From a virus: DNA of 52,459 bases. Made by a program: the position numbers and the translations under genes. The DNA lies in the UHGV virus genome UHGV-0060500, one strand, 5' to 3'. The notes under the pieces were generated by a model. It made no database searches, was not told the DNA's origin, and saw only the letters and a list, made by a program, of their open reading frames with translations. Positions 3,112 through 18,095 of this stretch are shown here, one piece after another; positions within the stretch are counted from its first letter, which is position 1; every line of letters starts with the position of its first letter.

Positions 3112-3318
3112 TCACACAATACGCATTGTGTTTCGTAATTCACCGCGCAGCACCCGCAGTGCATCACGCATTGGTACAAAAAACCGGTTAAATTTTACGT
3201 GTTTATATTTCCGCATCAGTGGCGGTGTATACACCTTTGCGTCGTATACTTCCCACGGATAATAAACACGCGTATCGTCGACAAACGTTTCAACTGAATA
3301 AAAGATTACCCGTCTCAT
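3112..3318 (-). CDS. Hypothetical protein (68 aa)
   Basis: ORF coupled to the upstream gene (overlap at 3315-3318). Confidence 0.35.
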   Translation of the reverse strand: MRRVIFYSVETFVDDTRVYYPWEVYDAKVYTPPLMRKYKHVKFNRFFVPMRDALRVLRGELRNTMRIV

Positions 3319-3908
3319 AATTCTAACCCCGTTTCACCGTTAAGTTTTTCGATCTCAAATACTGGTTTATCCGGTAACAGTCCGTTATTTTTCCGGTATT
3401 CATTCAGGCGGCTGTCAAAATCAAACGCGAGATCATTAGCGTGACCAAAGCGACCAGGTTTAAACAGTGAGTAAAAATTAAGGCCGTGTTTATTGGTATC
3501 TATGCAAAGCGTTTCATCCAGCACCATTAAACGCAGCGTGCGCGAAAGGTAATTCCACGGAATACCAGTTTCCGCGCTAATATCTCTCATTCGCTTTCTA
3601 ACGTTGTAGTCAGTAAATAACGCGGCTACACGCTCGCGTCGTTGTTCGTATAAATATTTAATTCGATAGCCCAGCAAGCGGCGGCGCGGGCCAAAATATG
3701 TATACACCCGCTCAACCAGATTAGTGTCGATCAGGTGTTTAACTGTTTCCGGCAAGCATCCGGCTTCGTCGTATTCCGCTGATAATCCGGTTTTCTGGCG
3801 TAGCTGGTGCATTGTTGCGATGCCATCAAGTTCAAGGATATTGATAATTTTTGCTTCAAGTTCAATGCTCATTGTTTTTCGCCTCGTTTTAAGCGCGAAA
3901 ACAGCCAC
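3315..3908 (-). CDS. Hypothetical protein (197 aa), replication/nin region
   Basis: Long ORF immediately downstream of the helicase gene in the same operon. Confidence 0.5.
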   Translation of the reverse strand: MAVFALKTRRKTMSIELEAKIINILELDGIATMHQLRQKTGLSAEYDEAGCLPETVKHLIDTNLVERVYTYFGPRRRLLGYRIKYLYEQRRERVAALFTDYNVRKRMRDISAETGIPWNYLSRTLRLMVLDETLCIDTNKHGLNFYSLFKPGRFGHANDLAFDFDSRLNEYRKNNGLLPDKPVFEIEKLNGETGLEL

Positions 3909-3951: not shown

Positions 3952-5367
3952 TTAAAAAGATGCGTTGTTCTGGCTGTTTCGTGGGGAGAATCTACTTGCC
4001 GCCGGACGTTGTTGCATTGACTGAATGCAAGCGGACGCCGCGCGGGCCTGGTCGCATGGGATGATGTTGCCGTTATCGTCAAACCGCTGGTAAACAGTCC
4101 CCGTTTTCCCGTGACGGTTTTTTGAAACGATGATCTCCATATATTCGCGGGCAACCGATTGTTCGTTGTAGTAGCCGTCGCGGTAGACCATGATGATCCG
4201 GTCTGCGTCCTGCTCAAGATTACCGGAATCACGCAGATCAGAATTGTTCGGGCGCTTGTTCGGTCGTTCCTCAACGCGGCGGGATAATTGCGCCAGCGCC
4301 GCCACTGGCACGCGCAACTCTTTCGCCATCATTTTCAATGACCACGACAATTGCCCTACGGCGAGATCATGACGTTCGGCCTTAGCCAGCTTCATTAACC
4401 CGATGTAGTCAATCATTACCATCCCCAGGTTAGGATGGTCCTGTTTCATCCGTTCGACGGTGGCGCGTATTTCCTCGACCGTTAACTGCGATGCGTCAAC
4501 AATCCACACATCGAGATCGGCAAGGGCACTCATTCCCTGGGCGACGTGCGCCCAACCTTCGTCATCCAGTTTTACCGGATTACGTAGGCAATCCGTTGAT
4601 AAGTTCCCAGCGCCAGCGATAGCACGTTCAGTCATCTGATCGAGCGACATTTCAAGCGTGAACAGCAAAACGCCGACCCGCTGACCTTCGCCGCCAGGGT
4701 ATGGACGTTCAGCCGCCGCGCGGGCAATTGCCAACGCCAACGCCGATTTACCAGACCCTGGGCGTCCGGCGATAAGCACCAGATCAGTAGCATTAATGCC
4801 GCCTAACATTTCGTCGAGTGGGTCAATACCTGTTTTGATGTTGTCAGAGTTCACGCCACACTCCATGCGTTTACTTAGCACTTCCGTGTATTCCTGGACC
4901 GCATCGCGCAACAGCACCGGGATAATTTGATCTTTTGTTACCTTTAATTTTGAATACCGGGAATCAAAATCTTTCATCGTCTCTTTGACGACCTCAAGTG
5001 TCCCAGTTTCCAGTTTGTAGCGCATATCGTCGATGAGTTCCAACATCTGCCGCCGCTGGTGCTCTTCACGTAGTAGCTGTGCATATCCCTTCAGGTTGGC
5101 AGCAGAAGGGCACGATCGCGCCGTTTGCATTAGCGGTACAAAGTTTTCATTACCAATCTCATCACCAACCAGTAACGCGTCGATAAGATTTCTGTTTCTG
5201 GCTTGCGCCCGGATAATTTCAAAAGCCCGCTTATATAGCGGAATAGTGAATACTTCAGGATCGAGCGTAGCAAGAACGTCTTGCGCGTTAGGTGTAAGCC
5301 CGCCTAACAGGAGTCCGCCTATCACAGCAGACTCTCGTTCTTGTCGCAGTGAGTTAACAGAATCCAT
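3952..5367 (-). CDS. Replicative DNA helicase, DnaB family
   Basis: 471 aa; Walker A GRPGSGKSALALAIA, DnaB-like N-terminal and RecA-like C-terminal regions. Confidence 0.9.
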   Translation of the reverse strand: MDSVNSLRQERESAVIGGLLLGGLTPNAQDVLATLDPEVFTIPLYKRAFEIIRAQARNRNLIDALLVGDEIGNENFVPLMQTARSCPSAANLKGYAQLLREEHQRRQMLELIDDMRYKLETGTLEVVKETMKDFDSRYSKLKVTKDQIIPVLLRDAVQEYTEVLSKRMECGVNSDNIKTGIDPLDEMLGGINATDLVLIAGRPGSGKSALALAIARAAAERPYPGGEGQRVGVLLFTLEMSLDQMTERAIAGAGNLSTDCLRNPVKLDDEGWAHVAQGMSALADLDVWIVDASQLTVEEIRATVERMKQDHPNLGMVMIDYIGLMKLAKAERHDLAVGQLSWSLKMMAKELRVPVAALAQLSRRVEERPNKRPNNSDLRDSGNLEQDADRIIMVYRDGYYNEQSVAREYMEIIVSKNRHGKTGTVYQRFDDNGNIIPCDQARAASACIQSMQQRPAASRFSPRNSQNNASF

Positions 5368-5385
5368 TATGGCATTACCTCCGGT

Positions 5386-6504
5386 TTACAAAATGGAATA
5401 TTCAGGGTAATAAACAAAGCGCCCGATTTCCCCGTGATCAGGACTGTAAATTATTACCGCCGCCAGACGCCGCGACCGCCAGCCGCCATTCGTTGAATAA
5501 GCGTCTTTGCCCGCTAACGTGCCGTGATACTCAACAACGCCTAACGATGATTCAATCAACCGTTGGTGGTGCCAGTGCCCGCAATGAGCATAAACCGCCG
5601 CAGACTTACCGAAATCTTCCCGCCAGTCAGAGACGCAGGCAGACAACAAATTTTCTGGTTTTTTGATGGTGTGTCCGTGGTGGTAAGCAAGGAATGTTTT
5701 GCCGTACTGTGTGTGGTGTACGATAGCAGGTGACACGTCAACCGTTACGCGCGGTTCATCTTCGTAAAAAGCCGCCAGCGCAGCACGTAGCCAAATCATC
5801 CCCGACTGATCGTGATTACCTGATAATACCTGGATTTCGATTTCTTTGTGGTTTAACAACATCTTTCCTACAGCACGGCGGACTGACCGGATCGCCACAT
5901 AAACAAGTTTTGCGTAGCGTGAATCGCAATCAAGTACGTGATTGCTTGATGGCGTCACTGGCAACAGCCCATCAGTGTGAAGAACATCCCCACCGAGAAG
6001 CAATACAGCTTTTTCAGACATCGGCGCTGCGCCTACCGCGTAGTCAAAGAAATCATTTAGCACGCGTTCAGCGATCCCGGTGTCGTAGCTCTCACCGCAT
6101 TCAGCTTTATGAGCAAGCGCCCCGATATGCAGATCGAATACCGGATAAAGGGCCAGGCTTTTTTGGAAATCAATTTCCGGCACTGGCACGGCCTCCGCGC
6201 GTGGCATGTCTTCCGTGAAAGCATCGCAAGCCGCTTGCATTAGCCTTTCCATTTCATCGCGATCACGGGCTGTTTTAATCCAGCGCATAATCACATTGCC
6301 ATCCTTATCGACGAGCAATGACTCACCATTGACGCCAAAGCCCGGCGCGCGACGCGTGGATATTAAACCGCGTTTCGCCAACCGTGCGCCCAGGCGTTCG
6401 ACGTTGCGTTTTGCCATTCCATATTCTTCTGCTATTTGCTTGTAAGTTTTCCCCTTGTTGTACTCGGCGATCAGTTCCTCATCGCTGATCTTTCTTTGTG
6501 ACAT
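5386..6504 (-). CDS. HTH domain protein fused to calcineurin-like metallophosphoesterase domain (replication-module protein)
   Basis: 372 aa; N-terminal HTH (TYKQIAEEYGMAKRNVERL); phosphoesterase motifs FDLHIG, GGDVLHTDG, SGNHDQ, GHWHH. Confidence 0.6.
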   Translation of the reverse strand: MSQRKISDEELIAEYNKGKTYKQIAEEYGMAKRNVERLGARLAKRGLISTRRAPGFGVNGESLLVDKDGNVIMRWIKTARDRDEMERLMQAACDAFTEDMPRAEAVPVPEIDFQKSLALYPVFDLHIGALAHKAECGESYDTGIAERVLNDFFDYAVGAAPMSEKAVLLLGGDVLHTDGLLPVTPSSNHVLDCDSRYAKLVYVAIRSVRRAVGKMLLNHKEIEIQVLSGNHDQSGMIWLRAALAAFYEDEPRVTVDVSPAIVHHTQYGKTFLAYHHGHTIKKPENLLSACVSDWREDFGKSAAVYAHCGHWHHQRLIESSLGVVEYHGTLAGKDAYSTNGGWRSRRLAAVIIYSPDHGEIGRFVYYPEYSIL

Positions 6505-6681
6505 AACGTTATTACCTCCGGTTCGCGGAATGAGTATTTATTCATAAATAACTAATTTTTATTAACATGGATTTCACGGTGTCAAAAAATGCCAGTAGGG
6601 TTAATCAACAACTTATGCAAATTGAAATAACCACTTAATGAATAACTAATCGTATACATTGCGGTTTACAATTTGTATACA

Positions 6682-7818
6682 TTAGGATATAGCACAACGG
6701 AAAAACTTGCACCCCAAATAATCTTCAATGCGTTTTTGTCTTATCGCATCGCTTTTTACTTGCCGTTTGTGATGTGACTCATCAATTTCTACAGCAACGT
6801 TATTCACAGGATCGTAGCCATCAATAAAATACTTATTGCCAGCAACATCAACAGGATATTGCCTTATTAATTTAACTCCTTTTAGTTTTTCATACATAGT
6901 TAAGCCAGCATGTTCATAACGCTTCCTAATCATATTTTTACAATTATCTCTCATTTCTGATAATTTCGAGTCGTACTCCTTTTTTATTTCTTCAATTACA
7001 TTTTTATCGCTTTTTAATTCAATAAAGTTTTCTATGTCGTTATAATTCCCGCATTCAAAATTATTATTAAGACCTTTATTTTCACCCCATGCATGATACT
7101 TTTCTGCTATCTTATCGCTAATATATCTTTCATACCCATAATTTGTTTTAACTATAAAATATTCAATATTTAAATCAATGGTAAACTCATCATTATTGAG
7201 GTGTTCAGTTAAAAACGCATCTGGATCTGCAATATCGCTTGAATGGAACAACCTTACCCATAGCTTTTCTATTGATACTCCGCGAGTGACGAACAACCAT
7301 TTTTTGTACTTTTCAGCATCTTCTTTTGACACATACACAGAACATCGCCCAGGAGTATCACTCGTTTCAACATAATTGTTACACCATAAAATATAATTAT
7401 AAGCATAAGGACTATCTTTTTTGGTGTTATTTGAATATGTATTAAAGATATCTTGCAAGTCAACTAATCCACAAGATTCAATAACTGGCTTAACCCATTT
7501 TTCATTATATTCATAATGTCTATATTTACCAGGTGTAACGAATCTAATAAACGTTATGGGTGTGATATACACATCATCACCATCAACAATAAAATCCTTG
7601 TATTCCTCAAATCCGTAAAGATCAGAGTATTTAACAAATGATTTAAGTCTATCAATTTCAAGTTCAGAAACCAGATTATTAACAGACAGTAATTGCGTGT
7701 CCTTACAATTGAGTTTCATATGATAAGTAGCAATCACATATACCTCCTTTATTAATTTTCTATATAACGCCTCAGACGCGCTACAACGCAAAAATCCCAC
7801 CGCGTAACCCGTTTGCAC
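6682..7818 (-). CDS. AT-rich moron protein with C-terminal PD-(D/E)xK (DUF559/Vsr-like) nuclease-like domain; true start probably 7720-7745
   Basis: Markedly lower GC than neighbours; C-terminus YPVDVAGNKYFIDGYDPVNNVAVEIDESHHKRQ...RQKRIEDYLGCKFFR fits the restriction-endonuclease-like fold pattern; strong SD AAGGAGG near 7750. Confidence 0.55.
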   Translation of the reverse strand: MQTGYAVGFLRCSASEALYRKLIKEVYVIATYHMKLNCKDTQLLSVNNLVSELEIDRLKSFVKYSDLYGFEEYKDFIVDGDDVYITPITFIRFVTPGKYRHYEYNEKWVKPVIESCGLVDLQDIFNTYSNNTKKDSPYAYNYILWCNNYVETSDTPGRCSVYVSKEDAEKYKKWLFVTRGVSIEKLWVRLFHSSDIADPDAFLTEHLNNDEFTIDLNIEYFIVKTNYGYERYISDKIAEKYHAWGENKGLNNNFECGNYNDIENFIELKSDKNVIEEIKKEYDSKLSEMRDNCKNMIRKRYEHAGLTMYEKLKGVKLIRQYPVDVAGNKYFIDGYDPVNNVAVEIDESHHKRQVKSDAIRQKRIEDYLGCKFFRCAIS

Positions 7819-8125: not shown

Positions 8126-9067
8126 TCAAAGAGCGCCAGCGCGCGTATCACGTAGCGTTTTTGGTTTAAGCAGGAAATCAAGTGTCGCAGTGAAGCCATT
8201 GCCGAAGTAAAAATCTGAAGCCGTGTTTTTGAACGTTTCGAAGTAGGCGACAAAGCCGTTAATGCTTTTGTCTTTCAGGTAGTCAGTGAACGCATAGATC
8301 TTGCGTTCAAGATCCCGATCCAGTTCGGCAGGTGGTAACAGGCCGTCAAACGTGCTGTTAAATGCTTCCACCACGTCGGCAGCGTTTACAGTAGATGATA
8401 GCTTGCGCCATTGTTCAGCATCAGCCAGATACCCATCGAATTTAGTTACCCGGCAAATGTTAACAGGCTTAGGCACTCCACCACGGCTACGCCATTGTGT
8501 CAAAGCCCATTCGATTACTAATGTGATCTCATCCTCCGTGTATGCCTTACGTGTTTTTGTTTCTGTCAGTAGTTCGATAAATGGTTTAGCGTCACGACAC
8601 TTGCATCCTGCCTTGTCGTTGTAGAAGGCCAGGCAACGATAAGCCGCCAGATTAACCTCCCGATCTTCTTCGCTGATAGACCAGTCTTTTTCCAATACAC
8701 GGAGTGTATTGTTTTTAATGTTCTCTTTACTGGTTATATATGACTGGTTAGGGTGACTCTGTGACACTACCCCCGGTGACTCTGTGTCACTACCCCGGTG
8801 ACTCTGTGTCACTACCCCCGGTGTCACAGTGACACTACCATGCAATGACGGAAGGACTATTACATAGAAATTACTAGTTTGCTCTTTTCCTCCGATTAAG
8901 TATCTTGGTTGTTTAATCAACAACCCTTTTTCACAAAGTGAGTCTACAGCCCTCATAGCTGTTCTTTTGCTGATCTCACACTCCTTTGCTATGTGATGGT
9001 AAGAAGGGTAACACTCGCCGTTATCATTAGCGTTATCAGCTAACTTCAACAGCACTAGTTTGTGCAT
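8126..9067 (-). CDS. Replication initiation protein (lambda O-like, N-terminal winged HTH, conserved phage C-terminal domain)
   Basis: N-terminus LKLADNANDNGECYPSYHHIAKECEISKRTAMRAV typical of phage replication initiator HTH; iterons inside the gene; start taken at Met 9067 (SD GAGGT), longer ORF-track start to 9133 is unlikely. Confidence 0.75.
   Translation of the reverse strand: MHKLVLLKLADNANDNGECYPSYHHIAKECEISKRTAMRAVDSLCEKGLLIKQPRYLIGGKEQTSNFYVIVLPSLHGSVTVTPGVVTQSHRGSDTESPGVVSQSHPNQSYITSKENIKNNTLRVLEKDWSISEEDREVNLAAYRCLAFYNDKAGCKCRDAKPFIELLTETKTRKAYTEDEITLVIEWALTQWRSRGGVPKPVNICRVTKFDGYLADAEQWRKLSSTVNAADVVEAFNSTFDGLLPPAELDRDLERKIYAFTDYLKDKSINGFVAYFETFKNTASDFYFGNGFTATLDFLLKPKTLRDTRAGAL
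8752..8840. repeat. Origin iterons: three and a half copies of the 22-23 bp repeat GGTGACTCTGTGTCACTACCCC inside the O-like gene, followed by an AT-rich segment
   Basis: Direct tandem repeats each containing the inverted half-sites GTGAC/GTCAC; the AT-rich stretch 8690-8750 lies downstream in the O reading direction, as in lambda ori. Confidence 0.7.
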
Positions 9068-9232
9068 TGGGTCGCCGACCTCAGTATGGAAGACCTCTAC
9101 CATTAGCCGCATACTCATAAGCATTAACCTCATGGCGAACTAAAACATTAACTGATAAACACAGAAGAAACCTGGCAGCTGGCTGATTAGGCCGCTTCTT
9201 TTCAGTTGATGCAGTGCAGAGATAGTGTCGCG

Positions 9233-9385
9233 TTACGAAATTTCGCACATTTCCGCGATCTCTTCTGGCGTTACTTCGCTTTTGCCGTTGCATCCAGCCT
9301 TTGTTGCCAGTGCAATTAAGATGAGTTTTTGCGCCGGATCATTGTTATTCAGGCGAATATCAAAAGCCTTGCGCACGTAATACAT
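9233..9385 (-). CDS. Small protein (50 aa) paralogous to the N-terminal HTH segment of the O-like initiator
   Basis: DPAQKLILIALATKAGCNGKSEVTPEEIAEMCEIS aligns with O residues DPMHKLVLLKLADNANDNGECYPSYHHIAKECEIS; strong SD AGGAGA 8 nt upstream of the ATG at 9385. Confidence 0.45.
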   Translation of the reverse strand: MYYVRKAFDIRLNNNDPAQKLILIALATKAGCNGKSEVTPEEIAEMCEIS

Positions 9386-9427
9386 ATTCTTTTCTCCTAT
9401 GGTTAGAGTGAACGCGCGGGCGGGCAT

Positions 9428-9690: not shown

Positions 9691-10338
9691 ATGAAAACAA
9701 AATGGTATGACTTAGCAAAGCAGCTCATGCGGGCGCAGGGCATGAGCCAGGATTCACTCGCGGATCGTATGGGGATAACTAAAGGCGGCCTGTCACACTG
9801 GCTGAACGGTCGCCGAGAGCCAAATCTTGAAGATATTGCGCGGATTATGCGCGAGCTTGGTCGTCGGCAGTTTACTGTTACACATGATGGCATGGTCATT
9901 GATGATTCTGTTTCTAATACACTTCAGGCCGTGCCGCCGCGTGATTTAGGTAGTTACCCGGTTATTGACTGGAAGGACACAGTAAACAATATGGATGACG
10001 CAAGGCGTTCAGCATTACGACACGTTACGACTAGCGTTATTTGTTCAGATGACAGTTACTGGCTGGTTGCCAAAGGTGAATCAATGAACGCGCCGCAGGG
10101 GTTGAGCATCCCGGCGGGGACGATGATACTTGTGGACCCGCACGCGCCAGCTATTGACGGCAAACTGGTTATAGCCCAGCTTGAGGAAGGGCAGATACCG
10201 ACGTTTAAACAGTTGATTATTGATGGAGGTCAAAGGCTTTTACGTTCGCTCAATCCGCTGTATCCGCCAATCCCTATGAATCCAGAATCAAAAATTATAG
10301 GCGTGGTGGTTGATGCGAAGATCGTAAACCTGCCATAA
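9691..10338 (+). CDS. cI: CI-like repressor (HTH_XRE plus S24 LexA-like peptidase domain)
   Basis: 215 aa; N-terminal HTH (QDSLADRMGITKGGLSHWLNGRREP); C-terminal GESM...K self-cleavage motif pattern. Confidence 0.85.
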   Translation: MKTKWYDLAKQLMRAQGMSQDSLADRMGITKGGLSHWLNGRREPNLEDIARIMRELGRRQFTVTHDGMVIDDSVSNTLQAVPPRDLGSYPVIDWKDTVNNMDDARRSALRHVTTSVICSDDSYWLVAKGESMNAPQGLSIPAGTMILVDPHAPAIDGKLVIAQLEEGQIPTFKQLIIDGGQRLLRSLNPLYPPIPMNPESKIIGVVVDAKIVNLP

Positions 10339-10838: not shown

Positions 10839-11129
10839 ATGAGCGTTACAATTATATATGGTAAATGTGATAGCAAAATGAATGCCAGGGAACGCAGAAG
10901 GATAAAAAGAGAAAACGAAAGAAAATCATCACCTGCAATCAATAAAACAGACAATGTGGATAAAGCTATTCGATTTGCAAACGAGGAAAGATGCAAACCA
11001 AATAGCATTAAAGAACGTCGCAAAGGATCAGTAAAATGGTATACGGAAAATGAAAGCGGCAGCTACTACCACGCAACGCAACCACGCCATTTAGGGGAAA
11101 AACCCCTGGATAAAGTCCGCTACCATTAA
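10839..11129 (+). CDS. Putative N-like antitermination protein (arginine-rich motif)
   Basis: 96 aa; MNARERRRIKRENERK resembles N-family arginine-rich RNA-binding motifs; first gene after the repressor; start may be the internal Met at 10878. Confidence 0.4.
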   Translation: MSVTIIYGKCDSKMNARERRRIKRENERKSSPAINKTDNVDKAIRFANEERCKPNSIKERRKGSVKWYTENESGSYYHATQPRHLGEKPLDKVRYH

Positions 11130-11159: not shown

Positions 11160-11282
11160 ATGGTTATTCAGGCGCTTCAATTCAAACTGGCAGTAGCGGA
11201 AATGCTTCACGATGCCGAAATGTGGAGCGCCGCGAATAAAGCCTTATACATAGTGTTAACAGCACGGGAGATTAAATGGTGA
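11160..11282 (+). CDS. Hypothetical small protein (40 aa)
   Basis: ATG with GGAG 9 nt upstream; stop overlaps the erf start. Confidence 0.3.
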   Translation: MVIQALQFKLAVAEMLHDAEMWSAANKALYIVLTAREIKW

Positions 11283-11920
11283 AAACAGAGTTACATAAAA
11301 AGCTATGGACGATTCAGCAAACGCTGAACGCGCCGAAAAATCAGCGTAATAATTTTGGTGGATATAATTACAGGTCGGCGGAGGATATTTTAGAGGCGGT
11401 TAAACCACTGCTTCAAAGTATTACGCTGACTGTAAGCGATGAAATTGTCCTGATCGGCAATCGCTATTATGTGAAAGCTACGGCGACGCTAAGCGACGGT
11501 GAAGACGAAATAGCGGTAACGGCTTACGCCAGGGAAGAAGAAAGCAAGAAGGGAATGGACGCAAGCCAGCTAACAGGTGCGACATCAAGTTACGCGCGAA
11601 AATATGCTTTGAACGGTTTATTCTGCATTGATGATGCGCGAGATCCTGATACTGACGCATACGCTAAGCAGACAGGCCAGCAGCCTCGCCAGCAGAAAAA
11701 CCCACCAAAACAACAACCACAGCAGCAGAAAGCGCCGCCAAATCCTGATGAAGTATTAGCACGTTTCTGTGATGCAGCAGCGAAAGCGCAGGACGCTAAC
11801 AAGCTGCGTGAAATATTTGGCAAATGCTGGAAATTACTACCGGAAGGATCGGAACATCGAATCAAGGCAAAAGATGTTTATGACATCCGGGTAGCAGAGC
11901 TTAACGGGGAGATGGGTTAA
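11276..11920 (+). CDS. erf: Erf-family single-strand annealing protein
   Basis: 214 aa; N-terminal region (GGYNYRSAEDILEAVKPLL...VTAYARE...GATSSYARKYALNGLF) matches the Erf family as recalled; Q/P-rich linker. Confidence 0.7.
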   Translation: MVKTELHKKLWTIQQTLNAPKNQRNNFGGYNYRSAEDILEAVKPLLQSITLTVSDEIVLIGNRYYVKATATLSDGEDEIAVTAYAREEESKKGMDASQLTGATSSYARKYALNGLFCIDDARDPDTDAYAKQTGQQPRQQKNPPKQQPQQQKAPPNPDEVLARFCDAAAKAQDANKLREIFGKCWKLLPEGSEHRIKAKDVYDIRVAELNGEMG

Positions 11921-12324
11921 TGAGTTTAAATTCAATCACGCTGGGCGGGAATATCGGTAATGATATGGAGGTTCGCTACACACAAAACGGGAAAGCGATT
12001 GGTAGTTTTCCGTTAGCTGTAACGAATGGCTACGGCGATAATAAGCGGACAATGTGGGTCACTTGCCTGGTATTTGGTGAGCGTGCGGAAAAATTAGCGC
12101 CACATATCCGCAAGGGTGGAAAAATAGTGGTAAGCGGTCGCCTGGATGTTCGGCAATATGACCGGAACGACGGCACGAAGGGAACGGCGGTAGAAGTGGC
12201 GGTTAACGAATTTGAATTCATGAACGTTAACCAACAAGGCCAGCAGCAGAAAGCGCCTCCGCAGCAGCAGAATAATAACGGGAATAATCCGCCGATGGAC
12301 TTTGATGACGATATCCCGTTTTGA
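11920..12324 (+). CDS. ssb: Single-stranded DNA-binding protein
   Basis: 134 aa OB-fold protein with Gln/Pro-rich tail ending in the acidic DFDDDIPF, as in bacterial SSB. Confidence 0.9.
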   Translation: MSLNSITLGGNIGNDMEVRYTQNGKAIGSFPLAVTNGYGDNKRTMWVTCLVFGERAEKLAPHIRKGGKIVVSGRLDVRQYDRNDGTKGTAVEVAVNEFEFMNVNQQGQQQKAPPQQQNNNGNNPPMDFDDDIPF

Positions 12325-12339
12325 TCCAATAGGTTAGCG

Positions 12340-12618
12340 ATGGTTGATTATCTAAAACCGCCACCACCGCCACGAACAAAAGAGCAAGTATTAAAAGAAG
12401 CCCGTGATCAAATCGATCGCGGGCTTTTTTTATGCGGCACGGCAGCGGAACGGATGGCAAAAAGATTTAGTGACCTGTACGCAAAACAAATATGGTTCGA
12501 CAACTGGCAGGCAAGTTTTTATCCGCTGCAAAGAAAACCGGATATGCACTGGCCTGAATATGTCGATCCACGTATGCGCAAATATCGCGGGCGTATGGGC
12601 CAGGTCATTAACGATTAA
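12340..12618 (+). CDS. Hypothetical protein (92 aa)
   Basis: Plus-strand ORF in the tightly packed early operon. Confidence 0.4.
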   Translation: MVDYLKPPPPPRTKEQVLKEARDQIDRGLFLCGTAAERMAKRFSDLYAKQIWFDNWQASFYPLQRKPDMHWPEYVDPRMRKYRGRMGQVIND

Positions 12619-15787: not shown

Positions 15788-16327
15788 ATGAAAAATGATT
15801 ACGGCGGCAGCCATACGCCGAAAGAAATAAAGGACTTATGGCAAACGCCAAAACCCGTTTTTAGAGGAATGGATCGTGAATTCGAATTCGTCGCGGACGT
15901 GGCGGCAAACAAGGCAAACGCATTAATCCCGCGATATATAACCGAAGAAATGGACACGCTGCATTATCCGTGGGGAGCGGTGGCAATGCCTGGTGAGTAT
16001 GTCTGGCTTAATCCGCCATATTCGAATCCGGGGCCATTCGTTGATAAGGCAGCGATGGAACATCACCGAAATCATATTGGCTGTGTAATGTTGTTGCCCG
16101 CTGATATCTCTGTTGGCTGGTTTATGAACGGCGTGGAGACGGCAAACGAATGCCGATTAATCACGCGCGGGCGGCTGGCGTTTATCAATGCTGCGACAGG
16201 GAAACCAGCAAGCGGAAACAATAAGGGTAGCTTGTTTTTGATCTGGCATCCACGGTGCAGACATGAATGTATTTTCACGCAGATAACACGTAAAGAGCTA
16301 TATGCAAGAGGTGCAGAAAATGAGTAA
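15788..16327 (+). CDS. dam: Phage DNA N6-adenine methyltransferase (Dam-like)
   Basis: 179 aa; catalytic NPPY motif (VWLNPPYSNPG) and overall pattern of the phage N-6-adenine methyltransferase family. Confidence 0.75.
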   Translation: MKNDYGGSHTPKEIKDLWQTPKPVFRGMDREFEFVADVAANKANALIPRYITEEMDTLHYPWGAVAMPGEYVWLNPPYSNPGPFVDKAAMEHHRNHIGCVMLLPADISVGWFMNGVETANECRLITRGRLAFINAATGKPASGNNKGSLFLIWHPRCRHECIFTQITRKELYARGAENE

Positions 16328-16832: not shown

Positions 16833-17316
16833 TAGGTTATTAGCCTGCGTTTATGTCGCCGTTTTTGTGATCATCAATCTTATTGTTAATCATTGCGGCC
16901 CGTGGGTAATTCCGATCACCACGGTAGCCGCCGTGTGTGTCAATATGATGATCCGTGACCTCCTGTTATATGACGGCGGCCTGAAATGGTCGGCTACAAC
17001 ATGCGCCGCCGCTGGCGCAATCACGGTGCTGATAAATTACGACGCCGGGATGGTGGCGATCGCGTCATTCGTCGCGGTTGTTTCCGGTGCGCTTATTTCT
17101 GGCGGCGTTTACCGGGTTTTGCCTGGTGGCTTTGATTCTAAACGTTGGCCTGCAAATATAGCGTCCGCCATTGGTGATGCGTTAATTTTTCCTACGCTAT
17201 CGTTTATGGCGTTTATGCCGGAAATATCAGCTATGCAATTCATCTCAAAAATGGCAGCGGTAACGGTGATTACTATCATCATGCGACGCTACTTCACGTT
17301 TGAGGGTAGAAAATGA
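16771..17316 (+). CDS. Multi-pass membrane protein, tentatively VUT/YhhQ-like (queuosine-precursor transporter family); start possibly 16813
   Basis: 4-5 predicted TM helices; loose resemblance to YhhQ segments (PANIASAIGDALIFPTLSFMAF versus YhhQ PTASTLFGNVSDTLAFFFIAF as recalled); assignment is tentative. Confidence 0.35.
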   Translation: MTTNRYYARRGIIKMERVTIDRLLACVYVAVFVIINLIVNHCGPWVIPITTVAAVCVNMMIRDLLLYDGGLKWSATTCAAAGAITVLINYDAGMVAIASFVAVVSGALISGGVYRVLPGGFDSKRWPANIASAIGDALIFPTLSFMAFMPEISAMQFISKMAAVTVITIIMRRYFTFEGRK

Positions 17317-18095
17317 GCAGGGCTAAACATTGGTTAAATAATTGGCTTAGAAGTTGGGTGGTGTGGTCGCTGTACGACGGCAGCGGGTACGCCGTTAAAG
17401 ATTGGGCGGAAGCAGGATATAAGTGCTATTGCTTCAACTATGACGGCGCAAATCACGGCGATTATGAAGGCGTTAAAATCATTCATCCAAATATTGAATA
17501 CGTTAACGTATGGATTGACAACCATTTCCTGGTAATGTTCTCCCCTGAATTGTCTGTTTATCCAGAGCCTGACATTATCTTGGGCTTTCCTCCGTGTGAT
17601 GATCTTGCCGTGTCCGGCGCTCGTTGGTTCGCTGACAAGCGGAAGAAAGATCCTCACTTCCAGCAAAAAGCAGCGTACAACGCAAAGTTAGTAGAAACGC
17701 TGGCGAGTATGTATAACGTCCCGTGGATGGTGGAAAATCCGGTGGGCGCACTGTCAACGCTATGGCGTAAACCGGATTTTATCTTCAATCCGTGCGCTTA
17801 CGGTGGCTACCTGCCGGAAGATGACAAACATCCTGCTTTCCCGGATGTTTACCCGCCGCGCGACGCGTATACGAAGAAAACTTGTATTTGGTGCGGCAAC
17901 GGATTTAAGCAGCCTCTTTTTAGGCCTGTAGATCTTAACTCTGGTGATAACCCTGGGTGGGCGAAAACCGGAGGCAGGACGAAACGAACAAAGATGATCC
18001 GCTCACTAACACCGCGTGGCTTTGCCCGTGCTGTATTCCTGGCTAACGACCGGGCCATCACGCGGACTACGCTTAACCGCGTTTTACCGGACTAA
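17313..18095 (+). CDS. DNA cytosine-5 methyltransferase-like protein (short)
   Basis: 260 aa; motif I-like LYDGSGY, motif IV-like GFPPCDDLAVSG (PC catalytic dipeptide), motif VI-like VENPVG. Confidence 0.55.
   Translation: MSRAKHWLNNWLRSWVVWSLYDGSGYAVKDWAEAGYKCYCFNYDGANHGDYEGVKIIHPNIEYVNVWIDNHFLVMFSPELSVYPEPDIILGFPPCDDLAVSGARWFADKRKKDPHFQQKAAYNAKLVETLASMYNVPWMVENPVGALSTLWRKPDFIFNPCAYGGYLPEDDKHPAFPDVYPPRDAYTKKTCIWCGNGFKQPLFRPVDLNSGDNPGWAKTGGRTKRTKMIRSLTPRGFARAVFLANDRAITRTTLNRVLPD

Follow-up and report, generated by a model that had tools for sequence, protein, structure and literature searches.

The window, meaning the whole analysed stretch of 52,459 nucleotides (UHGV virus genome UHGV-0060500), represents a prophage of the mEp021 group, and its replication module is of the P22 type. 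The genes at the locus are the following:

3952..5367, minus strand: DnaB-family replicative helicase of the P22 gp12 type (PF03796 DnaB_C, E 1.1e-75; DnaB N-terminal domain, 6e-12)
5386..6504, minus strand: HTH-metallophosphoesterase (MPE) gene, 372 aa, ATG start, member of PHROG 704
6682..7818, minus strand: low-GC insert gene (GC about 34%) with a DUF559/Vsr-like endonuclease C-terminus, between the initiator and MPE genes
8126..9133, minus strand: O-like replication initiator with an HTH_36 N-terminal and an O-like C-terminal domain, assigned by profile matches

The MPE gene is co-transcribed with the replication genes and is located directly upstream of the helicase gene, which starts 18 nt past the MPE stop codon and is preceded by a 13-nt Shine–Dalgarno sequence identical to that of the MPE gene. 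The initiator gene contains internal iterons at 8752-8839 (repeat family D1, inverted repeat I1). An earlier, sequence-only reading had placed the MPE gene between the initiator region and the helicase; this is correct as regards the O-like/HTH_36 initiator and the DnaB-family helicase, but the low-GC insert gene was overlooked. The latter matches DUF559 (2e-4) and PADLOC mREase_II (1.5e-8) and is found in only 5/44 related loci; it fills a variable cargo slot and has no share in the function of the MPE. The window also carries a P22-style set of Erf, SSB and Abc2. This set uses RecBCD, and the T1-like phage herni encodes its own exonuclease VIII next to Erf and separate from its MPE, so a role of the MPE as the exonuclease partner of Erf was rejected.

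The ORF of the MPE gene was confirmed. As proposed from the sequence, its product is an HTH–MPE fusion; a putative DNA-binding domain precedes an intact, metal-dependent phosphoesterase of nuclease-like type. Its ATG is preceded by a strong Shine–Dalgarno sequence, AACCGGAGGTAAT. The protein matches the PHROG 704 profile with an E value of 8.7e-137, residues 4-368 of 372 being aligned to profile positions 2-387 of 390, and the AlphaFold model has a pLDDT of 93.2. Homologues were found in 2045 phage records and form 4303 representative protein clusters at 50% identity, so the ORF is not a chance one. Its parts, all on the minus strand, are as follows:

6373..6483, minus strand: N-terminal three-helix HTH, LuxR/GerE/sigma-70 region 4-like (residues 8-44)
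6211..6339, minus strand: conserved β-hairpin and helix linker (residues 56-98), family consensus GxSxLYDxDGxxxxQWVKT
5410..6165, minus strand: MPE catalytic domain (residues 114-365)
6121..6138, minus strand: MPE motif I, FDLHIG (residues 123-128), with D124 in 501/502 relatives and H126 in 500/502
5968..5994, minus strand: MPE motif II, GGDVLHTDG (residues 171-179), with D173 in 502/502 relatives, H176 in 497/502 and D178 in 491/502
5917..5958, minus strand: family-specific conserved segment VTPSSNHVLDCDSR (T184, P185, L191, D192, D194, R196; alignment A1)
5806..5823, minus strand: MPE motif III, SGNHDQ (residues 228-233), with N230 and H231 each in 501/502 relatives
5671..5682, minus strand: MPE motif IV, HHGH (residues 275-278), with H276 in 502/502 relatives
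5566..5580, minus strand: MPE motif V, GHWHH (residues 309-313), with H310 in 495/502 relatives and H312 in 501/502

Two features that define the MPE superfamily are present: a β-sandwich MPE fold and five binuclear-metal motifs (DxH, GDxxD/H, GNH[D/E], H and GHxH). The four strings quoted in the sequence-only reading (motifs I, II, III and V) were all found, and the HHGH of motif IV, missing from its list, completes the set. The metal ligands D124, H126, D173, N230, H231, H276, H310 and H312 are each retained in 495-502 of the 502 relatives, while the mean identity of the whole MPE domain is about 41%. This conservation pattern indicates that the catalytic machinery is under strong constraint. 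H176 and D178 of motif II are family-specific residues; within the family-specific segment, T184 is invariant in alignment A1 (501/502 relatives) and P185, L191, D192, D194 and R196 are at least 90% conserved in it. The window protein matches no Pfam family at E ≤0.01 and neither Metallophos nor Metallophos_2 above the gathering score, and the Pfam MPE matches among 50 relatives are weak (14-15/50, best 1.7e-4). Such a miss reflects the limited sensitivity of the models and is no argument against membership of the superfamily.

The predicted HTH is built from helices 8-16, 21-28 and 32-44, modelled with a pLDDT above 90. The window protein itself matches Pfam HTH families only below the threshold (E about 0.02), and the profile match to GerE (1fse) has an E value of 0.05; homologues match Sigma70_r4_2 (1.5e-9), GerE (2.4e-8) and also HTH_8 and HTH_28 in Pfam. 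The linker that follows is modelled as two strands (56-65 and 71-80) and a helix (82-98), and its G69 and W75 are nearly invariant. The two-domain layout is general in the family, at least 100 residues preceding motif I in 492/502 relatives. No other part of the protein is conserved as poorly as the HTH, whose mean identity is 23% as against 41.5% for the MPE domain. It is a putative DNA tether, but it might instead bind a protein partner or serve as a regulator.

The window protein belongs to the same family as the other PHROG 704 members, for example gp12 of Escherichia phage herni, ORF19 of K1ind2, mEp010_12 and MagusPhagus CDS0008: the architecture is the same, the match is full-length and there is no structural difference. 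It is 96% identical to the MagusPhagus protein, 91% to that of mEp010 and about 66% to those of T1-like phages. The labels attached to PHROG 704, ‘DNA repair exonuclease’, ‘putative phosphoesterase’ and VOG9929, are computed annotations. A literature search found no paper on the HTH-MPE family and no biochemical or genetic data for any member, and the MPE gene goes undiscussed in the paper on the mEp021 group. In classical T1 genetics, a host-DNA-degradation function (gene 2.5) maps near the replication genes; it could not be linked to the MPE ORF.

The order of genes, initiator–X–helicase, is the sole likeness between the MPE gene and the genes for helicase loaders (lambda P, DnaC/DnaI, DciA and SPP1 G39P), with which the protein shares neither sequence nor fold similarity. 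The earlier description of the protein as neither P-like nor DnaC-like was confirmed: Pfam, NCBIfam and PHROGs contain no match to lambda P, DnaC/DnaI/IstB or DciA, and PADLOC likewise gave no loader match. Nor did the protein prove to be a clear homologue of a characterised replication factor without catalytic residues, the outcome that the earlier reading had named as its refutation. The supposed location ‘in the position of a helicase-loader gene’, by contrast, is unsupported: it implies a functional slot that is absent here. The helicase is 57% identical to the gene 12 product (gp12) of P22-like phages, where initiator gene 18 abuts helicase gene 12 with no loader gene between them. The MPE gene is thus an extra gene and not a substitute for a loader, and the helicase-loader identity was rejected. 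Overall, the module amounts to an ordinary P22-type pair of initiator and helicase into which an accessory enzyme has been inserted.

The MPE could nevertheless be a replisome factor for the phage DnaB, either as a loader or adaptor or as an accessory exonuclease, similar to DP1 and the polymerase B-subunits, with the helicase or the origin-bound initiator as its docking site. This is improbable in view of the P22-like modules just described, the lack of loader similarity and the genomic context. The helicase gene follows the MPE gene in 44/44 mEp021-like loci, but in only 1/72 non-redundant lineages; the DnaB-adjacent position is peculiar to the mEp021-like clade within PHROG 704. DnaB is absent from most carriers, the T1-like phages among them, and in these the MPE gene stands ahead of the lysis cassette. 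In three related loci, an HNH homing-endonuclease gene separates the MPE gene from dnaB. The catalytic residues are also fully conserved, unlike those of scaffold-only B-subunits. As a whole, the family is not specific to replication modules.

Outside the mEp021-like clade, the context of the gene is variable. In phages of Drexlerviridae, Jerseyvirus and Kagunavirus and in Vibrio and Rhodobacter phages, the neighbours are lysis, HNH, polynucleotide kinase, dNMP kinase, ligase or terminase genes; endonuclease VII, NinG/Rap, primase-helicases and DNA polymerase also occur beside it in other lineages. A recurrent cassette combines the MPE with a PNKP-type 3′-phosphatase, a kinase and an ATP-dependent DNA ligase. 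No conserved partner gene emerged: the 652 neighbour proteins of the 72 non-redundant lineages fall into 582 clusters, the largest of which covers six loci, and PHROG counts for 272 neighbour proteins of 70 lineages show low-frequency recurrences only. Among Drexlerviridae, the gene itself is a persistent core gene, present in 508/522 (PMC13164509), which points to a general phage DNA function and not to one specific to the DnaB replisome.

In many lineages, lysis cassettes, terminase or head genes lie immediately downstream of the MPE gene. Together with the sigma-70 region 4/LuxR type of the HTH, this would suit a protein that is primarily a transcription regulator, for example of late or lysis genes, with its function residing in the HTH and the MPE domain acting as a sensor or accessory. 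Against such a role stands the pattern of conservation, the HTH being the most variable part and the catalytic site nearly invariant; in the window, moreover, the gene is far from the late genes and no sequence-specific target is evident. A regulator of this kind is barely probable.

The sequence-only reading left the choice between a nuclease and a phosphatase open and proposed comparison with Mre11/SbcD and PP2B. In the fold comparison, the protein is closest to the nuclease clades (DP1/Mre11/SbcD) and PPP-type phosphatases have the lowest score, which favours the nuclease side. The match of the family profile to Thermotoga maritima SbcD/Mre11 (2q8u) is insignificant (E 0.93). Mre11/SbcD proteins have a capping domain after the core and lack an N-terminal HTH, whereas the MPE protein begins with an HTH and ends at the MPE core. 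No Rad50/SbcC gene was found among the neighbours, either in a scan of 10 large neighbours, which gave no family match, or among the top families of the 272 neighbour proteins from 70 lineages; the remaining window ORFs of 400 aa or more (442, 463, 504, 780 and 1656 aa) lie outside the annotated set, in the late half (28.6-51.2 kb). The lack of a capping domain, of an SbcC/Rad50 partner among the scanned genes and of a significant profile match led to the rejection of a true Mre11/SbcD orthologue. The likeness to archaeal PolD small subunit DP1, a 3′-5′ proofreading exonuclease, and to eukaryotic polymerase B-subunits is also limited, the TM-score being only about 0.4. In these proteins, an OB domain precedes the MPE, while the phage protein has the HTH and the hairpin and no recognisable OB; DP1 pairs obligately with a catalytic polymerase subunit, and no DP2 or polymerase gene is located near the MPE gene.

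PPP-type Ser/Thr phosphatases (lambda-PP, PP2B/calcineurin) carry the signatures GDxHG, GDxVDRG and GNHE, none of which is matched by the FDLHIG, GGDVLHTDG and GNHD of the MPE protein. This bears on the proposal that the substrate is not DNA and that the enzyme heals RNA 2′,3′-cyclic-phosphate or 3′-phosphate ends together with polynucleotide kinase, hydrolyses second messengers or dinucleoside polyphosphates, or dephosphorylates proteins. Such a role is distinctly unlikely given the resemblance to DNA nucleases described above. The neighbouring PNKP-type proteins already bring a HAD 3′-phosphatase, the ligases of the cassettes are of the DNA-ligase type, and a conserved HTH is hard to square with a small-molecule hydrolase.

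Two characterised enzymes offer precedents for a DNA nuclease. The MPE of the Pseudomonas putida Lhr-Core/MPE/Exo/ligase repair cluster is a stand-alone Mn-dependent ssDNA endonuclease that leaves 3′-PO4 ends; helicase and ligase genes lie beside its own, the ligase being an ATP-dependent DNA ligase in the four-gene clusters (PMC7826289). This gene setting parallels both the MPE–DnaB pair of the window and the phage MPE–phosphatase–kinase–ligase cassettes. Gp48 of the Cluster A mycobacteriophage A10ZJ24 is a five-motif MPE with phosphodiesterase and DNase activity and early expression; linear, plasmid and genomic DNA are all broken down by it in vitro, host DNA suffers damage from it in vivo, and the phage requires it to overcome M. 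tuberculosis defences (PMC12287305). Gp48 differs in having no N-terminal HTH (its motif I starts from D10) and in coming from a lytic actinophage, where it acts in counter-defence on host DNA; what it has in common with the window protein is the set of five motifs.

Gp48 is also a precedent (PMC12287305) for a nuclease that attacks the chromosome or defence nucleic acid early in infection, shutting down host or defence expression and feeding nucleotide salvage. The dNMP kinase and polynucleotide kinase genes that often follow the MPE gene in virulent lineages fit salvage of nucleotides from degraded DNA (PMC13164509), and the core status of the gene in the virulent Drexlerviridae also speaks for the proposal. 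For the window, this explanation is unlikely. The gene lies in a temperate early replication operon and is kept in 44/44 related prophages, where indiscriminate damage to host DNA ahead of the lysis–lysogeny decision would be self-defeating, and the missing HTH places Gp48 in a different MPE lineage. PADLOC gave no defence or anti-defence match for the MPE protein, so it was rejected as a known defence or anti-defence protein.

The best explanation, to which an even chance can be given, is that the product is an HTH-tethered Mn2+/Mg2+-dependent DNA nuclease, accessory to the DNA metabolism of the phage and not a DnaB loader. The protein is predicted to be an active, stand-alone binuclear MPE, most likely a Mn2+/Mg2+-dependent DNA phosphodiesterase, which the N-terminal LuxR/sigma-70-region-4-type HTH would hold on DNA. 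Its likely task would be the trimming or incision of ends, nicks, flaps and single-stranded stretches arising from phage replication and recombination. The proposed DNA substrate and the presumed role in phage DNA metabolism in vivo are consistent with the DNA-metabolism genes among the neighbours, and the P. putida MPE and Gp48 suggest them by analogy. Against the DNA nuclease stand the insignificant link to the SbcD profile and the lack of a Pfam MPE match. In addition, a constitutively active nuclease encoded in a temperate early operon would have to spare the host chromosome during lysogenisation.

A bolder proposal is that the HTH-MPE is a nuclease coupled to replication, acting in physical association with the phage DnaB or, in a more general form, at the replication forks of phages. 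It could be a DP1-like 3′-5′ exonuclease riding with the helicase, or an HTH-directed nickase that mediates the transition from theta to rolling-circle replication. Such coupling has a low probability; if true, it would account for the core-gene status in Drexlerviridae and would make the HTH-MPE a previously unrecognised, widespread phage replisome component.

For annotation, the consequence is that the MPE gene should not be labelled a helicase loader. The family is very large (2045 phages, 4303 clusters) and has a near-invariant catalytic site, and it carries a computed label only. Assignment of a substrate would cover the gene in T1-like phages, Webervirus, Jersey-like phages, Kagunavirus and gut phages of the mEp021 group; many of these phages serve in therapy or are under consideration for it. 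A further outcome could be a new type of enzyme, a DNA-tethered MPE nuclease that acts without a Rad50-like partner.

The HTH-metallophosphoesterase (MPE) gene belongs to a P22-like early region that has genes for an N-like antiterminator, Erf, SSB and Abc2, plus NinB and a MarR/Ren-like gene. The main features are as follows:

8126..9133, minus strand: O-like initiator (HTH_36 at 5e-15 and PHROG replication-initiation families), upstream of the MPE gene
8752–8839, inside the initiator gene (minus strand): about four tandem iterons of 22–23 nt, GGTGACTCTGTG[A/T]CACTACCCCC
6682..7818, minus strand: low-GC (34%) gene for a 378-aa protein with a C-terminal DUF559/Vsr-like endonuclease domain, between the initiator and MPE genes
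5386..6504, minus strand: HTH-MPE gene, a 372-aa ORF with an ATG start
3952..5367, minus strand: DnaB-family helicase (DnaB_C 1.1e-75), starting 18 nt past the MPE stop codon
10839–12618, plus strand: P22-style early-left set, with N-like antiterminator (10839–11129), Erf (11276–11920) and SSB (11920–12324)
12340–12618, plus strand: Abc2 anti-RecBCD protein, the last of this set
15788–16327 and 17313–18095: two DNA methyltransferase genes
243–1433: integrase

The window corresponds to an essentially complete prophage of the mEp021/‘mEpimmI’ group of Nus-dependent non-lambdoid coliphages; this group has been described, with no discussion of the MPE gene (PMC11893012). The helicase is 94–98% identical to those of mEp010, mEp013, mEp021, mEp044, mEp515, mEp554 and MagusPhagus, and, of 5426 complete E. 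coli genomes, just 35 have a close match to the replication region. The iteron stretch contains an inverted repeat and encodes a repeated VTPGVVTQSH-like peptide; it is probably the replication origin, located within the O-like gene as in lambda. Directly downstream of dnaB, a 197-aa gene (3315–3908, minus strand) has weak MarR-family and Ren-like PHROG matches; its locus in relatives carries either the same allele (81–100% identity) or a very different one (~35%). A 64-aa HTH protein (9233–9427, minus strand) is encoded in the cro position, divergently from a LexA/CI-type repressor (9691–10338), and is similar to the N-terminal part of HTH_36 replication initiators (phrog_4617, 5e-8). Since it has counterparts in most related loci, at 42–52% identity and in a few at 88–100%, it is a small conserved gene rather than a fragment.

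The MPE gene is preceded by a strong Shine-Dalgarno sequence, AACCGGAGGTAAT. This 13-nt stretch, Shine-Dalgarno included, has only two copies in the 52-kb window, at 5374–5386 and 6511–6523 (minus strand), ahead of dnaB and the MPE gene alike; the repetition points to translation signals that are matched, or to a module-junction sequence that both share. Minus-strand terminator-like sites were found neither at the MPE–dnaB junction nor in the gap before the MPE start codon; a single weak minus-strand match (5 pairs) falls within the MPE coding sequence, at 5784–5771.

The sequence-only reading had put the gene between the initiator and DnaB, in the position of a helicase-loader gene. The initiator is indeed upstream and dnaB downstream, but the gene at 6682..7818 had been missed. 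Its product matches methyl-directed type II restriction enzymes (PADLOC, E 1.5e-8); present in just 5 of 44 related loci, with Rha-family or zinc-ribbon genes filling the slot in related prophages, it is apparently a cargo (moron) gene, perhaps for defence, in a variable initiator–MPE slot. Both the N-terminal half of the initiator and the initiator–MPE spacing vary among these loci. dnaB is downstream of the MPE gene in all 44 (prophages and viral contigs), and the junction is no longer than about 30 nt in 41. In three, a 202-aa HNH homing-endonuclease gene lies exactly between the two (7016–7624 in phage locus L042, also in L043 and L045). In environmental phages, too, the MPE gene is flanked by HNH genes, and in Jerseyvirus and Vibrio phages an HNH gene follows it; homing elements thus seem to use this conserved gene frequently as a target or landmark.

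With gene 12 of P22-like phages, ST104 and BTP1 among them, the helicase shares 57% identity. In those phages, the tblastn match overlaps genes 18 and 12, so that initiator and helicase are immediate neighbours and no loader gene comes between them; the module is therefore of a type without a loader slot, to which the MPE gene is an addition. The location between initiator and DnaB thus does not amount to a functional loader slot. That the protein is a DnaB-associated loader or replisome factor is quite improbable: apart from the P22 comparison, this role is weakened by the family's occurrence in phages that lack DnaB, by HNH genes inserted between the MPE gene and dnaB and by the conservation of the catalytic site.

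All four motifs quoted in the sequence-only reading were found in the ORF, together with a fifth, and a confident AlphaFold2 model (mean pLDDT 93.2, pTM 0.81), built with an alignment of 50 family sequences, contains no domain beyond those listed:

residues 123–128, 171–179, 228–233 and 309–313: MPE motifs FDLHIG, GGDVLHTDG, SGNHDQ and GHWHH
residues 275–278: fifth MPE motif, HHGH
residues 8–44: three-helix bundle (predicted HTH)
residues 56–80: β-hairpin
residues 82–98: helix
residues 114–365: MPE sandwich

The window protein is a full-length match to phrog_704, ‘DNA repair exonuclease’ (PHROGs, E 8.7e-137), and has no match of its own in Pfam, NCBIfam or PADLOC. Homologues occur in 2045 phage records (tblastn), with identities of 96% in Escherichia phage MagusPhagus, ~66% in T1-like Drexlerviridae, ~61% in Klebsiella Webervirus, ~38–43% in Jerseyvirus, Kagunavirus and Dhillonvirus-like phages and ~30–39% in Vibrio, Rhodobacter, Ruegeria and Sulfitobacter phages. 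When 1.84 billion cluster representatives were searched exhaustively with HMMER, 4303 clusters matched at E ≤1e-3 and 922 at ≤1e-30. As a sequence family it has been catalogued before, and the copy in the window, 96–99% identical to database entries, is not itself new.

In the 50-sequence alignment (mean column identity 37%), the MPE ligand columns D124, H126, G172, D173, N230, H231, H276, G277, G309, H310 and H312 are invariant, as are M1 and the family-specific T184. Among 502 relatives covering all five motifs, each metal ligand is retained in 495–502, and 492 have at least 100 residues ahead of motif I. The N-terminal HTH region evolves fastest (mean pairwise identity 23% vs 41.5% for the MPE domain); HTH matches fall short of the threshold for the window protein (E ~0.02) and reach significance for homologues (Sigma70_r4_2 1.5e-9, GerE 2.4e-8, HTH_8 2.6e-7). 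Because the catalytic centre is invariant, the protein is a predicted enzyme rather than a scaffold; that it acts as a regulator is very improbable.

Fold comparison of the model (scores)
PolD DP1 proofreading exonuclease (5ihe_A, 213 residues): 16.1
S. aureus SbcD and T. maritima Mre11: 14.7
MJ0936: 14.1
LpxH: 13.3
Further Mre11 structures: 12.4–13.3
Polymerase B-subunits: 9.6–12.8
Rv0805: 12.4
GpdQ: 12.1
P. putida nuclease MPE: 9.3
PPP phosphatases: about 9

The MPE domain groups with nucleic-acid nucleases, away from PP2B-like protein phosphatases, by a margin that is modest within the superfamily. Foldseek was concordant, with DP1 and Mre11 at the top (TM ~0.4), and the fold is seen in many uncharacterised phage proteins (BFVD); sequence-profile support for SbcD was nil (E 0.93). 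Relative to characterised MPE nucleases, the window protein is a distinct variant: it is fused to an HTH and has neither a capping domain nor a Rad50-like or polymerase partner.

Four divergent family members were used as queries to collect 237 further loci from viral contigs, reduced to 72 lineages at 70% identity, in which DnaB adjacency is restricted to the mEp021-like lineage. The 652 neighbour proteins fell into 582 BLAST clusters, the largest spanning 6 loci, and no SbcC/Rad50 was found among ten large neighbours scanned.

PHROG matches of the two genes on either side (counts each out of 138 or 134 proteins)
Downstream: endolysin 5; dNMP kinase 5; polynucleotide kinase 4; terminase large subunit 4; HNH endonucleases 4
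Upstream: holin 3; endonuclease VII 2; NinG/Rap, DNA polymerase, primase and exonuclease 1 each

In T1-like phage herni, the MPE gene ends a helicase, VRR-NUC and Dam operon immediately before holin; in Webervirus and Kagunavirus, polynucleotide kinase and a dNMP-kinase-like gene come after it, and in a Rhodobacter phage, lysis genes precede it. Two environmental phage loci, L083 (5413–9507) and L111 (997–4386), have a compact DNA end-processing cassette consisting, in this order, of endonuclease VII, HTH-MPE, (HNH), a PNKP-type HAD 3′-phosphatase, a P-loop kinase or dATP/dGTP diphosphohydrolase and an ATP-dependent DNA ligase. A role as the exonuclease partner of Erf was rejected, since the window relies on Abc2 together with RecBCD and T1-like phages encode exonuclease VIII as a separate enzyme.

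DNA is the most probable substrate, as indicated by a fold resembling that of nucleases, an HTH conserved in the family, neighbours that consistently belong to DNA metabolism and partners for end healing and sealing; a non-DNA phosphoesterase, acting for example in RNA end healing or on nucleotide signals, is unlikely. We therefore infer a putative HTH-tethered Mn/Mg-dependent DNA nuclease. What the sequence-only reading observed is confirmed, and its suggestion of a nuclease or phosphatase recruited to the replication module is partly supported. Stand-alone MPEs acting as DNA nucleases have precedents. The P. putida MPE, whose gene neighbours those for the Lhr-Core helicase and a DNA ligase, cleaves ssDNA as a Mn-dependent endonuclease and leaves some 3′-PO4 ends (PMC7826289); such ends would need a 3′-phosphatase like the one encoded beside the MPE gene in the phage cassettes. 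A second MPE, Gp48 of mycobacteriophage A10ZJ24, acts as a DNase and damages host DNA (PMC12287305); for the window protein, a role as a host-DNA or counter-defence nuclease is rather unlikely. As an HTH-tethered nuclease, it would be held on DNA by its N-terminal domain and may process ends, nicks or single-stranded regions in phage replication and recombination. According to a 2026 pangenome study, 508 of 522 Drexlerviridae have the MPE gene as a persistent gene located upstream of their lysis cassette (PMC13164509); in this major phage family, it belongs to the core genes.
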